Source: an uncultured Nitrososphaerota archaeon (GTDB lineage Archaea > Thermoproteota > Nitrososphaeria > Nitrososphaerales > CADDZS01). Taken from it: a stretch of DNA of 64,000 nt. Each line of letters opens with the position of its first letter. The first letter of the stretch is position 1. Under the pieces are notes generated by a model. That model saw only the letters and a list, made by a program, of their open reading frames with translations. It was not told where the DNA came from and searched no databases. Both the position numbers and the translations under genes were made by a program. The stretch lies in the NCBI GenBank assembly GCA_963799845.1, contig CAWCYI010000004.1, positions 1,184,001-1,248,000 on the forward strand. The letters run 5' to 3'. Positions 1 through 52,059 of this stretch are shown here, piece after piece.

Positions 1-733
1 GAAAGGATAATCTGTGCGACAACTTTTCGGTGATGGCGATCAATGCAGACGGATCGTGGGCTGAAGCCGTCGTAGTCCCATCCCGACATGTCCACAACCT
101 CCCAGGCAATCTTGAATTTCCTGAAGGTGCGATCATGAACTGCTCCGTTTTTACGGCATATCACGCCAACAAGCTCGCGGAAGTTTCGCCGGTGACAGCG
201 TACTTGTGTACGGTCTGGGCGGCGTCGGCATTAGCGTACTCCAGTGGGCGAAGATTTTTGGGGCGAATGAAATCGTCGCGCTTGATTTTGAAGAGGGAAA
301 GCTCCGTCTTGCAAAAGAAAAGGGTGCAACGAAGACTTTCAGCCCCAAGAATTCCGGAGATCCGGTCAAAGAACTCAAGGAAATGACAAATGGCGGAGTC
401 GATATTGCGTTCGAAGTTATAGGGCGCGCCGACACGACTAGGAAAACCATCGAGTGTGTAGGAAAAGGAGGCAAGGCGGTACTTGTGGGGATGTGTTTCG
501 AGAATTGGCCGATGAATACTGTGAACGACCTGCAAGTATCCGAGATTAAAATGATGAGCCCGCAGGATCATCTGAAATCTGAAATTCCTCAGATACTGAA
601 GTTCATTGAATCGGGGCGCTTTGATCTGAAGAACGTAGTGACCCACAGGATTTCGCTGAATGACGTAAACAGGGGTGTCGAGATTCTGGACAAAAGGATC
701 AGCAATCCCGGAAGGATAGTGATGGAACCGTGA
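1..733 (+). CDS. Zn-dependent medium-chain alcohol dehydrogenase (5' truncated by window; 1-nt frameshift ~191)
   Basis: ORF 30.. gives DGSWAEAVVVP...GAIMNCSVFTAYHA. Adding one G at ccggtgac (PGDSVLVYG) joins it to ORF 206..733 with Rossmann GLGGVG and C-terminal THRISL...GRIV. Confidence 0.85.
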
Positions 734-1205: not shown

Positions 1206-3170
1206 TTATGTAATGTTCGCATCTCTGAGAATCTTCGCGAACCTCGGGTCTTGGCGAAAACTATCAAATAAGCACAAGTAGCGGAGCAGATACTGACCAA
1301 CAGTCTTTTCCCTGACGGCGATCTCTAGGTACTCGAAAAACTTGTCTGGATCGTTCAAACCCGCGTACACACAAGCGATGCTCTCACTCCCAACAAAATT
1401 TTCAGATCTAGTTTTCAATAGCTCGTTCAATATCTTCTTTGCCTCGTCGGTTTCTCCCTTTATCGCGCAAGCGTATCCCAATACTCCCATCAACCGCGAA
1501 TGACCTGGCGAGAATACCAAGCCTCTTTTCAATTCTCTTTTCGCTTCGTCCAGTCTTGAGAATTTGATGAGCCATATCGATCTCCAGAGATATAACACGA
1601 AGAACCCAGGCTCAAACTTCAGAGTATCTTCCCACTGACGCCAAGCTTCCTCATTCATTCCCGAATCGAGATACATGGAGCCGAGAACGGTTCGAATTAT
1701 TGGAGACAGAGGATCGGCCCTCAGTGCTATTTTCATCTCTTCAACCGCTTCACGTGGTCTTCCCAAACTGCTCAGGCATATAGCATACCAGTGATGGGCG
1801 GAAGCGTAGTTGGGATTAAGTGATATTGCCAACTTGTACTCTTTTTCCGCATTCACCTGGTCGTAATCATGCTCAAGAGATGACGCGAGGACGGTATGTG
1901 CTTCGACAAGATTGCGATCGATTTCGAGCGCTTTTTTCGAGTACTCTCGCGCTCTCGGGAGTACTTCCGCAGCTGGCATTTGTCCATAATCGAGTAAAAC
2001 AAGGTAGCATGCAGCTAATCCTGAGTAGGCAAGTGCAAACCTCGTGTCTTTCCCAATAGCGAGCTCGAAGAGGTGAATTGCTTCCTTAATCGCCGCGGGT
2101 GTTCGCTCATACATCTTCTGTGCCGCTTTCATGTACAACGTATATGCGTCCAAGCTTTCAGTGGCTTTGCTTTCTACTCGTTTCACTTCGTCTTTGACTA
2201 GCCTCACTTGCAAAACGTCGGCAACGCGCTTTGCGATGTCGCTCTGGATCGCAAATACATCGTCGAGCTTCCTATCATACGAATCTGACCAGACATGATT
2301 GCTCGTCCGCGCGTCTATCAACTGGGTCGTGACCCGCAGTCTATCGCCAGCCATCCGAACGCTTCCTTCCAAAACGGATCCGACCTCAAGCTCCCGGCCG
2401 ATTTCATCGATCCCTTTGTTTGCATTCTTATAACGAATAACAGATGTCCTTGCAATTACTTGCAGACCGCTGATCTTTGAAATGGTCGATATGAGCTCCT
2501 CCGTCATCCCATCGCTAAAGTATGCGTCGTTTGGATTCGGACTGATGTTGTCAAATGGGAGGACTGCGATTCTTCGTTTGTCCAATCCAGTTCTCTCCTG
2601 AGAATCCTTTCGATTTTTCTCCCATGGCAGGATTATTTTGTAGATCTCTGTGGCAAACTTGACATTCTTCAGATCTGATCGCTCTAAACGTTCAAGAGGA
2701 AGATCTGTCTTGTTGTGCACCTGATCGTAGACCTGCTCAGAAATGCAAATTCCCTCAGGATCGGCCAGCGGTTGAATTCTGGATGCGATGTTGACTGCAT
2801 CACCGAGGACATCATTTGATTTGTGTACCACGTCTCCCAGATGAATTCCAATCCTGAGCTTGATCTTCCAATCGTCTCGCGAGGATACGTTGTAATCGTG
2901 GAGAAACTCCTGGATCTCCACGGCACACCGGGTTGCATCCAGTGCACTGTCAAACTCTGCAAGGAAAGCATCGCCGATAGTTTTGATTTCGCGTCCGTTG
3001 TGTTTTGGAAAGATTGGGCGAAGAATCCTGTTGTGCCGTTCCAGAACATCCAGGGCTCGAGTTTCATCCGATTGTGTGAGCGCCGTGTATCCCACAATGT
3101 CGGTAAACATGATAGCAGCGAGCTTGCGTTCTCCTGCTCTGGCATCAGACAAAATAACGCTACCTCTCAC
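1206..3170 (-). CDS. Class III adenylate cyclase with TolB_N-like and TPR domains
   Basis: FTDIVGYT, IKTIGDAF, DVLGDAVNIASR (metal Asps, K/D adenine specificity, N..R); RIAVLPFDNISPNPNDAYFSDGMTEELI (TolB_N-like); TPR repeats; ends DPRF. Confidence 0.9.
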   Translation of the reverse strand: MRGSVILSDARAGERKLAAIMFTDIVGYTALTQSDETRALDVLERHNRILRPIFPKHNGREIKTIGDAFLAEFDSALDATRCAVEIQEFLHDYNVSSRDDWKIKLRIGIHLGDVVHKSNDVLGDAVNIASRIQPLADPEGICISEQVYDQVHNKTDLPLERLERSDLKNVKFATEIYKIILPWEKNRKDSQERTGLDKRRIAVLPFDNISPNPNDAYFSDGMTEELISTISKISGLQVIARTSVIRYKNANKGIDEIGRELEVGSVLEGSVRMAGDRLRVTTQLIDARTSNHVWSDSYDRKLDDVFAIQSDIAKRVADVLQVRLVKDEVKRVESKATESLDAYTLYMKAAQKMYERTPAAIKEAIHLFELAIGKDTRFALAYSGLAACYLVLLDYGQMPAAEVLPRAREYSKKALEIDRNLVEAHTVLASSLEHDYDQVNAEKEYKLAISLNPNYASAHHWYAICLSSLGRPREAVEEMKIALRADPLSPIIRTVLGSMYLDSGMNEEAWRQWEDTLKFEPGFFVLYLWRSIWLIKFSRLDEAKRELKRGLVFSPGHSRLMGVLGYACAIKGETDEAKKILNELLKTRSENFVGSESIACVYAGLNDPDKFFEYLEIAVREKTVGQYLLRYLCLFDSFRQDPRFAKILRDANIT

Positions 3171-4532: not shown

Positions 4533-5699
4533 TTGCAGATCAAAAGTGTAGAATCGCACGTTGTTCACTCTCAGGACACGACTAAAGGTATGCAGCATGA
4601 GCCAAATGTTGGAGGCCATTCTGGTTACTTTGTTCTAGTCCACATAAAGACAGATGAAGAGGTTGATGGATGGGGCGAGTGCGCGACAGGAAGCGACTTT
4701 GGAGAGGCCGCCTTTGCCGCAAGGGCCATAATCGAGAAAGGATTTGCCAGAAGATTAATCGACAAAGATCCGCTTGAGTACAGAAAGTTATGGGAAGTGC
4801 TCTACGCTTCAACCGAGAATTATGGACGTAGAGATCTGGGTGTCCTGGCACTGAGCGGGGTAGATACTGCCCTGGTAGATGTTGCCGCAAAAAAGTATGA
4901 AGTCCCGGCGTGTGTGTTGTTAGGTGGTCGATACAATGAAGAAGTTCCGCTTTACGCGAGTCTCCTCTTTGACATGGACGACCCAGTTGGGACTGCTGTG
5001 AAGGGAAAAAAATACCTCAGCGAGAATTACGCCGGGATAAAGTTTGGCTGGGGCATGGTTCCGTCAAAACCATTTGGCAAGAATCTCAAGGCTGACGAAG
5101 CAATGGTAAAAACGATCCGTGAGACTTTAGGCTATGATATCAAGCTCATGATAGATGTGGGAAGGTACGTCAACCTGTCTTCGTCGCAGGTGCTGAAAAT
5201 GGCGAGCGCTTTTGAGAAATATGACATCACTTGGCTCGAGGAACCACTGCCGAGGGACGACATTGATGGGTATCGAGTGATCTCTCGCAGGTCGCCGATT
5301 CCGATTGCAGCCGGCGAAGGTTACCGAACGATGCATGATTTTAGGCGGTCAATTACGAGGGGGGAAGTCAATCTGTTGCAACCCGACGTTAGCAAAGCCG
5401 GTGGTCTCTCAGAGACGAAAAGGATAGTGGAGATGGCACATGATTTTAACGTCCCGTGGGTTCCGCACAACTGGAGCACTGCTTTGAACTCGGCGGCAAC
5501 ACTTCACCTTGTGGCTTCCTCAATTGATGCATACCTGATGGAGTTTAAGCAGGAGCTGAATCCTCTAATTCAAGAGATCGCGAAACGTGGGGAAGAAATA
5601 TTTTCAGTCCGTGGTGGAAAAATGCGTGTGCCATCCGGCCTAGGATTGGGAATTGAAATCGATGAAGATGCTGTTGCGAAGTACGAAGTATCCCGGTAA
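4533..5699 (+). CDS. Mandelate racemase/muconate lactonizing (enolase superfamily) enzyme
   Basis: SGVDTALVD, LLGG, MIDVG, WLEEP, AAGE, QPD, PHNW, GLGIEID. Confidence 0.9.
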   Translation: MQIKSVESHVVHSQDTTKGMQHEPNVGGHSGYFVLVHIKTDEEVDGWGECATGSDFGEAAFAARAIIEKGFARRLIDKDPLEYRKLWEVLYASTENYGRRDLGVLALSGVDTALVDVAAKKYEVPACVLLGGRYNEEVPLYASLLFDMDDPVGTAVKGKKYLSENYAGIKFGWGMVPSKPFGKNLKADEAMVKTIRETLGYDIKLMIDVGRYVNLSSSQVLKMASAFEKYDITWLEEPLPRDDIDGYRVISRRSPIPIAAGEGYRTMHDFRRSITRGEVNLLQPDVSKAGGLSETKRIVEMAHDFNVPWVPHNWSTALNSAATLHLVASSIDAYLMEFKQELNPLIQEIAKRGEEIFSVRGGKMRVPSGLGLGIEIDEDAVAKYEVSR

Positions 5700-49347: not shown

Positions 49348-49499
49348 GACTTTACTTCGGGTACGGCGAAATTAACAACTTGTTATAACCCTTCCTGCCT
49401 TTTGATTGCCCTGATCCTAAGATAGACTTCTTGCGAAAAATTGGTTTCAGATAAGCTTTTTCTGAATCCCCAGCGGGCATGAAAATCTTAGATTAGCCT

Positions 49500-49690
49500 C
49501 TCCCCTCCAGCAAGAGACAGCTGGAGTTGTGTTCATGGATCCCCGCAGCCTTCGAATCTCTTGTGCCTTGTGCATGTTCCCCAGCATGGCTGCACAGTCA
49601 TCGTCACAATTGACGATGATCGAAACGACCGGCCCGCTTGTCCATAATGGACGTACGGGAGATTGTCGGTCTGGGATCCATGACGCAAAC
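49500..49690 (+). ncRNA. Candidate bridge/seek RNA of the IS110 element
   Basis: Stems read by eye: 49505-11/49520-26 (7 bp); 49533-43/49673-83 (11 bp perfect); 49545-50/49588-93; 49598-606/49611-19 (9 bp); 49627-32/49666-71; 49640-44/49648-52. Loop segment TCCCCAGC (49578-85) equals the left flank 49467-74. Confidence 0.7.
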
Positions 49691-49725
49691 AACCAGTCAA
49701 ACAATAGGAGTATGAATCGAAACCA

Positions 49726-50955
49726 ATGACGAGAGTCGGAATAGACGCACATAAGAAGAGCTGCACCACGCAGGTCTTCGCGGACGGAGAAGAGTCACCC
49801 ATACAATCCTTCGTCTTCAAGACGAGCAGGGCAGGAGTCTCTGAGATGCTAGCAAAGATTCCGGACAAATCTGTATTTGTCATCGAATCTAGCACAACTG
49901 GAAAGGCGGTCACGAGAATGATTTCTTCTTTCGCATCAAACCAGCACGTGATTCACATGGTTGCGCCACCAGAGAAGAAAGCATCTGTGAAAACCGATAA
50001 GAGAGACTGCGAGCGTATCGTCAAGGAGGATGCACTGGGCTACTTGAGAAGGTGCTACGTTCCCTCACAGTACATAGAAGACATGCGCTTTCTTGTGACC
50101 CAACAGATAGAGATTGGCGCAAAGATATCGAGAGTAAAGAACCAGATCCAAGCTCTACTGGAGAGAAACATGGTCCAGAGCGAGTTCTCAGAATTCTCTG
50201 ACGTGTTCAGTAACGGAGGTCTTCAAAAGCTCGGAGAGATAGAGCTTCCAAAGCAAGACAGGCTGGCTCTCGCATTGCATCTTTCGGAGCTCAAGTTCTA
50301 TGCAACCCAGCATACGGAGGTTGAGACCGAGATTGCAAAGATGGCAGCCTCAGACGAAGACTGCCAGCTTCTGTTCAGTCACCCTGGCATCAATGCTTTC
50401 ACCGCAGTAGCCATCAAGGCAAGAATAGGAGACGCTTCAAGGTTCCCCACAAAGAAACATCTCTGCTCGTATGCCGGAGTCGTTCCAGGTGCTGACAACA
50501 GTGGAGAGCGTGAGTCCCACCACGAACACGTAAAGCACGGCGACGTCATATTGAAGTACGCTCTAACATGCGCAGTGAGTGGAGCCGTGAAAGCCAAGAC
50601 GGATTCTGCTGTCAAAAGAGTCTACCTGAAGCACATCAAGAGGGGGAAAGCTCCTCAGGAGGCTCAGGTTGATGCTGCAAGGAAACTCGCCTGCATTGTC
50701 TGGAAGATGCTTACATTCAAGCAGAGGTACGTCGAGGAGGACAAGTATCTGACAGCGAAGAAGATGAGGCAAACATCCTTCAATGCTCAAAGAGTCATCA
50801 AAGACGCGATACTACCAGAGAGCGTTACAGAGCTAGCCAAAAGCCTTTCATCGGACGTTAGCGTACTGGAGCAGTACTCAACGAATCTTGATCGTATGCT
50901 TGGTCGTCACAATCGGAGAAAAAAGGAAAATAGCAGGCAGACAGGAGTGACTTGA
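49726..50955 (+). CDS. IS110-family recombinase/transposase
   Basis: RuvC-like DEDD: VGIDAHK, VIESS, KTDKRD; Tnp domain PGI...A, RF, SYAGVVPGADNSG (catalytic Ser), ARKL. Confidence 0.95.
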   Translation: MTRVGIDAHKKSCTTQVFADGEESPIQSFVFKTSRAGVSEMLAKIPDKSVFVIESSTTGKAVTRMISSFASNQHVIHMVAPPEKKASVKTDKRDCERIVKEDALGYLRRCYVPSQYIEDMRFLVTQQIEIGAKISRVKNQIQALLERNMVQSEFSEFSDVFSNGGLQKLGEIELPKQDRLALALHLSELKFYATQHTEVETEIAKMAASDEDCQLLFSHPGINAFTAVAIKARIGDASRFPTKKHLCSYAGVVPGADNSGERESHHEHVKHGDVILKYALTCAVSGAVKAKTDSAVKRVYLKHIKRGKAPQEAQVDAARKLACIVWKMLTFKQRYVEEDKYLTAKKMRQTSFNAQRVIKDAILPESVTELAKSLSSDVSVLEQYSTNLDRMLGRHNRRKKENSRQTGVT

Positions 50956-51035
50956 TGATGTTTAATATTCCTTCTTCAATAGAAGATTTTCACGGGAGAA
51001 ACTCGGACTCTGGGTAGCGAGATAGAATGCTTTGG

Positions 51036-52059
51036 CTAAAAGACAGTTGAAGAGAAAAGCTCCAGGGATTTGTATTTCGGATAATCTAAAAACATGAGCT
51101 CGAAGCGCTGACACCCCAATTCGACGTACTTCTTTAGTTTCTCTCTGACTTCGTCGGGCGTCCCGATGATAGTCTTCTCTATGTCAAACACATAATCGGG
51201 CGAAGGGAGCTGGACAATCGATGATCCGAGAGCGCCTACAACATCCATCACTCTCTTTTTCTTTTCCCTTAATTCGTCATGGTTTTTGGCAATGAGCACA
51301 TGGGCATGAATGCTCCTCTTGATGCTGTCCGGCGTTCTCCCTTGCTTCTTGAGCTCTTGATTGAGAAATTCTGCCCTCTCCCTGTATTGCTCGTACGTAG
51401 GTTCCGCGCCGATGTCCCATTCGTCGGCAAGCTCTGCAGCTACGCGCAGGGTTCTCTTGCCCCATCCACCTACCATTAACGGAACCTTTTTGGAGGGCAC
51501 GGGGTTGTTGACAACATTGTCAACGCCGTAATATTTTCCTCTGTAGCTGAACTTTCGACCACTCATCATTCCACGTATTATCTCGATACCCTCCCTCATC
51601 ATATCGACCCTGACGGATGCAGGTCGAAAGTCGTATCCAAAGGCTTTGTACCTCGAGCTCGTACCATCCCGCGCCGTAACCAAGGATGAACCTGTTGTCT
51701 GACATCAACGCTAGGGACGAAGCCATCTTGGCTACCAGTGCTGGATTTCTGTAATTGTTGCAACAGACGTAAGTGCCGAGGTGAACTCTTGACGTTACTT
51801 GGGACAGGGCGCTGAGCGTCGTCCATACCTCAAATGTCATTCCGTTTTTGCCTAGCATGAAGTGATCAGGCGACCAGAGCGAATTGTAACCCAGTGATTC
51901 TGCCTCCCTCGCAAAACTCACTACACTGCCCCAATTGACTTCAGAGTTAAGCGGCAAATCATAGAGTCCCCAATATTCTTCGGCATTTGGCGTTCCAGTC
52001 GCATCCCCAGCGTAGGAGGGTACCACTACGCCGAACTCCGCTTCAACCCTTGTCATCAT
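51036..52059 (-). CDS. LLM-class (probably F420-dependent) oxidoreductase (frameshift ~51651)
   Basis: WSPDHF, YRNPALVAK, LGYGAGWYELE + extra G + YKAFGYDF, VGGWG. Confidence 0.87.

Follow-up and report, generated by a model that had tools for sequence, protein, structure and literature searches.

The window, that is, the whole stretch of 64,000 nucleotides that we analysed, carries an insertion sequence of the IS110 family, 1523 bp long from CGGG tip to CGGG tip, CGGG being a direct repeat at both ends of the element (Table 1). Its non-coding left end comprises 252 nt (49474-49725) upstream of a single recombinase gene, and 41 nt (50956-50996) follow the stop codon at the right end. A pair of subterminal inverted repeats, TGAAAATCTT / AAGATTTTCA, is present near the tips, and its 8-bp core is kept in homologs. 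The host genome (4.6 Mb in 9 contigs, 86.7% complete) carries four copies of the element with 99-100% identity; three of them have the intact 409-aa open reading frame, and the fourth has a one-base insertion by which the frame is truncated at residue 388. A fragment of the host SSU rRNA scored best with the archaeal model (776 bits), in agreement with the probable archaeal host that had been suggested in an earlier note on this DNA. Adjoining the element is a gene for an F420-dependent LLM class (luciferase-like) oxidoreductase in two overlapping open reading frames (51036-52059, minus strand), of which 51520-52059 corresponds to positions 3-112 of PF00296 and 51036-51683 to positions 111-313; this split gene looks like a frameshifted gene or an assembly error.

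The earlier note had also reported an intact IS110 recombinase downstream of its candidate RNA, and this was confirmed, as the 409-aa product contains both domains of the family, PF01548 (DEDD_Tnp_IS110) at residues 4-147 (36.2 bits, cut-off 29) and PF02371 (Transposase_20) at residues 213-291 (60.2 bits, cut-off 21.3), and scores 174.2 bits with NCBIfam NF033542 'IS110 family RNA-guided transposase' (cut-off 140). With a profile built from 34 homologs, the C-terminal domain aligned with the transposases of IS621 (8wt6_A, E = 1.3e-8) and ISCro4 (E = 2.2e-8), and 'NSG' of the recombinase was aligned to 'ESG' of IS621. Residues D7, E54, D91, D94 and G260 are invariant or nearly so in the 34 homologs; by analogy, D7/E54/D91/D94 may be the RuvC-like catalytic residues, the N-terminal alignment with IS621 being not significant. 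The nearest named transposase relatives come from MAGs of Nitrososphaerota/Thaumarchaeota and Bathyarchaeia. A weak match to NF052498 'TIGR-Tas system RNA-guided endonuclease' was also seen at residues 184-263, below threshold (22.1 bits, cut-off 100), and it fits the reported Nop-domain kinship of these families.

Table 1 Features of the element, its predicted guide RNA and its junctions (window coordinates)
Feature	Start	End	Strand	Basis and remarks
Left target arm LT'	49465	49471	+	7 nt directly 5' of the core; last 5 nt matched by the predicted left target guide
Core dinucleotide AG, left copy	49472	49473	+	Junction counts; empty sites with a single AG
IS110-family insertion sequence	49474	50996	+	Four genome copies; ends fixed by AG-core empty sites
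Left subterminal inverted repeat TGAAAATCTT	49480	49489	+	Inverted repeat; TGAAAATC kept in homologs
5' hairpin	49505	49526	+	Fold; limited to the window element and its closest relatives, region not conserved among aligned homologs
Closing stem, 5' strand	49533	49543	+	Perfect 11 bp with 49673-49683; helix 1, compensatory changes in 9/13 pairs
Arm-1 stem, 5' strand GCAGCC	49545	49550	+	Pairs with 49588-49593; compensatory changes in 6/6 pairs
Predicted right target guide	49551	49561	+	Pairs with the top strand: U49561 and C49560 to core AG (50997-98), 49559-49551 to 50999-51007
Arm-1 distal hairpin	49563	49575	+	Compensatory changes in 3/4 pairs
Predicted left target guide UUCCCCAG	49577	49584	+	Same as the top strand of LT' plus core, so pairs with the bottom strand
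Central hairpin between the arms	49598	49619	+	9 bp, 49598-49606 / 49611-49619
Arm-2 stem, 5' strand CGAC	49626	49629	+	Pairs with 49665-49668; helix 4, 100% of cells paired, little variation
Predicted right donor guide GCCCGCU	49632	49638	+	Complement of core AG followed by CGGGC, the 5 nt at the left tip of the element
Arm-2 distal hairpin	49640	49652	+	Helix 5, compensatory changes in 2/5 pairs
Predicted left donor guide ACGGGAG	49655	49661	+	Same sequence as the 5 nt at the right tip of the element followed by core AG
Closing stem, 3' strand	49673	49683	+	Inverted repeat; compensatory changes
IS110-family RNA-guided transposase, 409 aa	49726	50955	+	PF01548 and PF02371; NF033542; IS621 alignment
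Right subterminal inverted repeat AAGATTTTCA	50983	50992	+	Inverted repeat; GATTTTCA kept in homologs
Core dinucleotide AG, right copy	50997	50998	+	Junction counts; window copy and genome copies
Right target arm RT'	50999	51007	+	Paired by the predicted right target guide; window copy with 6 Watson-Crick and 1 G.U of 9

The recombinase gene is preceded by a structured RNA with its core at 49532-49684. RNAfold returned the same multibranch fold that had previously been drawn by eye (-93.4 kcal/mol, z = -4.04), and none of 200 shuffled sequences folded as well; the perfect 11-bp closing stem and the 9-bp central hairpin described before were both found as perfect inverted repeats. The central hairpin, which the earlier note had regarded as an extra element of this RNA, is indeed present in the window element, but beyond it only in its copies and in the close relatives L005 and L020. 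We gathered 95 related loci from genome and metagenome contigs and aligned the region upstream of the recombinase, and five helices are supported in 41 sequences, namely the closing stem and, for each of the two arms, a stem and a distal hairpin. In these 41 homologs, standard pairs occupy 97.6% of the cells of the five helices, and 21 of the 32 pairs have changes on both sides, compared with 9.2 in shuffled alignments, none of 500 of which reached 21, although such permutation counts overstate independence because the homologs are interrelated. Sliding the partner strand gave only 3-11 two-sided pairs. RNAalifold additionally drew a CCC/GGG pairing inside arm 2, which is uninformative because it never varies. 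At position 49532 the window copy has T, which breaks the outermost G-C pair of the closing stem, and G is found there in the other three copies and in contigs of three DNA runs.

A covariance model of the RNA, R1, gave 71 matches at E <= 0.01 over 99 sources, upstream of the recombinase, a number which includes a few matches cut by contig ends and two weak ones on the reverse strand. The latter (L028, 125-263, and L055, 1401-1533, both on the minus strand, 25-28 bits) overlie true hits and are an artefact of the palindromic nature of the stems. R1 reaches loci whose recombinases have 24-33% amino acid identity to the query, with titled records from Thermoplasmata and Methanobacteriota, and under stricter filters no match was found in 150 other sampled genomes of the phylum. 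No Rfam family reached its gathering score over the whole window, and permissive E-values around the site gave only two chance lncRNA matches (E = 3 and 4.6).

As to expression, the RNA libraries of public runs contained one contig from peat, at 49948-50145 inside the recombinase gene, and none over the guide region; this contig is silent on the expression of the guide RNA. No promoter for the RNA was identified, and a scan for sigma-70 promoters and terminators is not meaningful for an archaeon. A promoter formed at the circle junction was considered from the TATA-like TTTAATATT at 50960-68 and rejected, as this sequence is not conserved in the right ends of the homologs. An oligo-T tract is absent between the RNA and the recombinase gene, and co-transcription of the RNA with the recombinase mRNA is therefore likely.

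The point of crossover was placed by means of junctions and empty sites. AG precedes the element at 44 of 45 left junctions and follows it at 31 of 39 right junctions, the left junction being nearly always AG-C-GGG and the right one mostly GGG-AG. Five relatives (L040, L043, L046, L048 and L049) interrupt an rve-family transposase gene (PF00665), the left part of which ends in ...NHPQ and the right part of which reads ...RETNGKLER. The motif (N/S/G)HP(Q/E)(T/S)NGKLE is uninterrupted in 105 of the best 120 homologs of this gene, and the other 15 are truncated (224-276 aa), which suggests that the site between NHPQ and TNGKLE is often hit. For L049, the flanks give HPQTNG exactly only if the element is removed together with one AG. 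The second empty site is that of L085, which has an unoccupied copy of its own target, in inverted orientation, where TTTTGGGAT leads over a single AG into GCTCTAAG; this right arm is the one predicted by the element's own guide, and it is also found beside related elements. As decided by the sequences of these two empty sites in relatives, the crossover core is the dinucleotide AG, an assignment that for the window copy rests on the relatives and on the AG at both of its own junctions.

The earlier note had favoured another geometry, in which CGGG or GGG would be the core, with left flank-CGGG-right flank as the target and TTCA-CGGG-CATG as the circle junction. It is true that CGGG stands at both junctions of all four genome copies and that GCCCG and ACGGG in arm 2 match it. 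Nevertheless, we regard this geometry as highly improbable. It predicts an rve target that reads HPQ-RE-TNGK, leaving two extra codons in the case of L049, whereas the 105 of 120 homologs are of the HPQTNGK type with nothing between; the unoccupied site of L085 is without CGGG between the target halves; a search of the element's own genome (86.7% complete) for left flank-CGGG-right flank at up to three mismatches gave no match; and the right-guide register that would include such a core is at background. The earlier note was misled on the core because CGGG is a direct repeat at the element tips. Thus, of its reading of arm 2, the location of GCCCG and ACGGG at guide positions holds, but the proposed circle junction is wrong, the shared core being AG.

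Further searches for empty sites gave the following results. In the genome that carries the window element, the pattern expected from the AG model had 17 hits at up to two mismatches against 2 for the control, with no clean empty site among them; several of the hits resemble tRNA 3' ends to the eye, and the best hit was a palindrome at C6:1107510 with one mismatch. A 14-nt pattern occurs in the window only at the occupied left junction, a DNA-level search of 30 relatives with the 575-nt left flank gave no match outside the own genome and hence no empty site, and a degenerate pattern for the rve empty site had no hits among the fetched loci. The element is also contained in three soil DNA runs from one study, with contigs that stop at its ends and show neither an empty site nor a circle joint.

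The loop of arm 1 was compared with the flanking DNA. This arm is closed by GCAGCC/GGCTGC, and TCCCCAGC on its 3' strand (49578-85) is identical to 49467-74 at the left junction, both as the earlier note had stated. Both strands of the loop are hypervariable among homologs. We reduced the guide sets to 38 differing at more than 2 of 15 positions, a left flank being available for 29 of them and a right flank for 26. In the left guide, the 6 nt that precede the conserved AG share 4.14/6 identities with the left flank, against 1.81 when shuffled (n = 29), and the reverse complement of the right guide shares 5.77/7 with positions 3-9 of the right flank, against 2.32 (n = 26); on either side, 0 of 10,000 permutations did as well. 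When the register was scanned, the right guide had a single peak of 7.42/9 identities at U49561-A50997 (26 non-redundant homologs), and the left guide likewise had a single peak. The pairing of UCUCUUG (49557-63) with CGGGAGA (50993-99), which the earlier note had put forward for the right side, is possible on paper, but its register is 2 nt off the peak, where the background is 2.3-2.9/9; the true right guide runs 9-11 nt into the flank. In arm 1, the base that follows the core on the 3' strand agrees with the one that opens the element, being C in general (C49585 in the window, at the handshake position) and T in both places in L028. In all, about 30 independent relatives show the arm-1 loop changing in step with the DNA next to the element, one loop strand with the left flank and the other with the right, on opposite DNA strands.

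This covariation also bears on whether the structure is only a cis-acting 5' leader that controls the translation or stability of the recombinase mRNA, the flank matches being incidental. The position of the RNA directly upstream of a conserved Shine-Dalgarno-like GGAG and start codon would suit such a leader, as would its likely co-transcription with the mRNA, but a leader alone cannot account for the covariation of the two loop strands with the flanking DNA, seen in about 30 relatives and in a single register, and we consider it extremely unlikely that the RNA is nothing else. A leader role and a guide role could coexist. For the guide role, we infer from the natural covariation that the recombinase depends on the RNA and may be programmable through it.

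Arm 2 differs in that its guides are only 7 nt each and vary little across homologs, as do the element ends. On its 3' strand, the two bases that precede GGG agree with those preceding GGG at the right end of the element in 33/33 cases (AC 24, AT 7, TC 2). On its 5' strand, the base just ahead of CCC is able to pair with the one that follows GGG at the left end of the element in 37/41, 10 of these being G.T wobbles. Because the ends vary little, the donor covariation rests on three states on one side and on a wobble-capable base on the other. The base after the core on this strand, A49662 in the window, equals the first target base after the core, and this handshake base matches in 36 of 39 homologs (shuffled mean 15.5; 0 of 10,000 reach 36). 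To judge by these complementarities, the donor loop is complementary to the joined element ends, the core is included in all four predicted guides, and the bases after the core on the 3' strands of both arms behave like the handshake guides of IS621.

It may instead be that arm 1 alone guides, that arm 2 is a protein-binding scaffold, and that the ends are recognised via the subterminal repeats and the donor-flanking target halves, an end recognition of the kind proposed for IS1111-family elements. The subterminal inverted repeats and the IS1111-type guide order of the element would fit, and so would the high conservation of arm 2, the shortness of its guide stretches (7 nt) and its CCC and GGG stretches, which can pair mutually and never vary; moreover, short seekRNAs with target matches only are described as supporting the transposition of ISEc11 and ISEc21 (PMC11187229). 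A pure scaffold, however, would not be expected to have bases before GGG that track the right end in 33/33 cases through three states, nor a base after the core that tracks the target in 36/39. We therefore think this seekRNA-type explanation unlikely and prefer to read arm 2 as a donor-binding loop.

The sites of the four genome copies share (C)CGAAT(C/T)CCC-AG-(A/C)nAyT(C/T)G(G/C)AC and are similar over 20-24 bp, so that the three other copies lie in sites closely similar to that in the window. At each site, 4-5 of the 6 variable bases of the left guide are matched, and the 9 bases of the right guide find 6-7 Watson-Crick partners and one wobble partner, with 1-2 mismatches. The site of copy L003, a palindrome with a 9-bp stem, fits the guide better than that of the window copy. 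Relatives have targets in other mobile elements, either the transposase gene motif described above (the L040 group) or, in L085, the end of an element of the IS4/IS5 family, a behaviour also known from bacterial IS110 and IS1111 elements. In L085 (100-1020), the IS110-type relative lies inside one terminal inverted repeat of this IS4/IS5-family element, which has PF13340 and PF01609 and a transposase in two open reading frames, and the other inverted repeat (123-140, minus strand) is the unoccupied target copy. Thirteen distant loci (24-33% amino acid identity) follow the same guide logic around an AG core, with fixed-offset matches on the left in 6/13 and on the right in 5/13; relatives in contigs of the Thermoplasmata type share this architecture. 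A 25.9-kb metagenome contig (L034) holds two family elements with different guides, at 1828-1972 (+) and 4619-4765 (-). The left half of the target, CGAATCCCCAG, occurs in tRNA-like sequences CGAATCCCCAGAGGCCCGC as well (e.g. G000 C4:489563, C4:530556 and C6:1746388); their right halves misfit the right guide, and their identity as T-arm/acceptor 3' end was judged by eye.

In the mechanism that we propose, the RNA would adopt a multibranch fold closed by the long stem, with two arms that each have a large internal loop; arm 1 would be the target-binding loop and arm 2 the donor-binding loop, and on each 3' strand one base past the core would match the non-cognate partner in the manner of a handshake base. 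On the model of IS621, the junction of the excised circle would read RE-CACGGG / AG / CGGGCATG-LE, and the complex of recombinase and RNA would recombine it with LT'-AG-RT' at the AG core, which would leave AG on both sides of the inserted element. Production of the RNA, its binding by the recombinase, the chemistry and the order of strand exchange are likewise parts of this proposal. On the strength of the sequence evidence as a whole, the element is very probably an archaeal IS110-family insertion sequence, active-looking, with a bridge (seek) RNA encoded in its left end. The central idea of the earlier note, an RNA-guided recombinase of the IS110 type whose guide RNA comes from the upstream end and carries the left-flank guide on its 3' strand, is supported by covariation, and the conserved structure, the guides that follow their flanks and the related sites of the other copies all point the same way. 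Its proposed target and donor sequences for a recombination assay are wrong, since the AG core changes the circle junction.

To our knowledge, bridge/seek RNAs are the only guides that specify both recombination partners, and they have so far been studied in bacterial elements. The archaeal element overturns no prior knowledge. It offers a mapped archaeal example, with boundaries, AG core, four predicted guides and putative handshake bases, together with natural reprogramming in dozens of relatives, and the AG-core map supplies the correct substrates for a first archaeal recombination assay. It also shows that guide polarity of the IS1111 type can go together with an upstream RNA, and the covariance model picks up relatives with a protein identity as low as about 25-30%. 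For most IS110 and IS1111 elements, bridge RNAs have been predicted in large surveys (PMC11208160), and a 2026 preprint reports 86 covariance models over 32,190 loci (bioRxiv 10.64898/2026.10.21.760802); in the literature that we searched, no description of the guides of an archaeal bridge RNA was found, and such large surveys may already catalogue the family.

We also put forward, tentatively and as a possibility that we rate somewhat below an even chance, that these elements make up a separate clade of bridge systems, which to date has been met only in contigs of archaea (Nitrososphaerota, Bathyarchaeia, Thermoplasmata and Methanobacteriota), which keeps the IS621 layout with opposite site polarity and with mirrored guides and handshake. 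If this is true, the mirrored polarity would imply that the other strand is exchanged first relative to gene direction, the conserved AG core and about 18-20 programmable target bases would amount to a native RNA-guided DNA-insertion tool for archaea, and the RNA-protein pair would be a concrete archaeal case in which the idea that C/D-box RNPs descend from IS110 elements could be put to the test.

The closest well-described system is the IS621 bridge RNA and its recombinase, of the IS110 group (Durrant et al. 2024, PMC11208160; Hiraizumi et al. 2024, PMC11208158). As in IS621, the left end codes for the predicted RNA, ahead of the gene for a DEDD/Tnp recombinase, and this RNA has two internal loops, the target loop first and the donor loop second; each loop would read both DNA strands, the dinucleotide core lies within all four guides, the handshake bases adjoin it, and the core is found on both sides of the inserted element. 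Compared with the order described for IS621 (PMC11208160), however, the guide order is reversed in both loops, the archaeal 5' strand pairing with the top strand and the 3' strand with the bottom strand. The putative handshake bases lie beside the bottom-strand guides, whereas those of IS621 lie beside RTG and RDG (PMC11208158). Furthermore, the core is AG instead of CT, the target guides are longer (about 7-8 and 11 nt) and the donor guides shorter (7 and 7 nt), the element has subterminal inverted repeats of 8-10 bp, a single long stem closes the RNA as a whole, the recombinase has 409 aa compared with 328 residues in the solved IS621 chain, and the host is an archaeon.

The guide order had been called unlike IS621 in the earlier note; this is correct, but the order is not new, as it has been reported for IS1111-family seekRNAs. 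In those of ISEc11, ISPa11 and ISKpn4, the match to the top strand is described as lying on the 5' side of that to the bottom strand, whereas ISEc21, which is of the IS110 type, has the opposite order (Siddiquee et al. 2024, PMC11187229). The same report gives IS1111 elements subterminal inverted repeats of 7-17 bp and a non-coding region that is usually downstream, with few exceptions such as ISMtsp17. The archaeal element resembles the IS1111 family in guide order, in subterminal inverted repeats and in its specific targets, some of them in the ends or genes of other mobile elements, but its non-coding region is upstream of the recombinase gene and not downstream, its recombinase is larger (409 aa against 330-350 aa), and a second, donor-matching loop is evident in its predicted RNA. 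ISEc21 is described as targeting the DDE codons of IS3-family transposase genes (PMC11187229), and the relatives L040, L043, L046, L048 and L049 similarly insert into a conserved transposase motif (rve, between HPQ and TNGK), although guide order and target family differ and their hosts are archaeal.

A more distant comparison is with archaeal C/D-box sRNAs, for whose protein Nop5 a homology with IS110 recombinases has been proposed (Vaysset et al. 2024, bioRxiv 10.1101/2024.06.21.599552). Both RNAs have two guide-bearing internal loops in an archaeal setting, but the element's RNA has no C/D boxes or K-turn at conserved positions, as judged by eye, and it would guide DNA recombination instead of RNA methylation. 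The element combines the guide order and subterminal repeats of the IS1111 type and an upstream RNA with an evident donor loop. It is a well-supported conclusion that we are dealing with a genuine, well-mapped system of the bridge/seek RNA kind, belonging to an insertion sequence of the IS110 family in an archaeon; its architecture may be a mirrored variant, but the system as such is not of a new kind.
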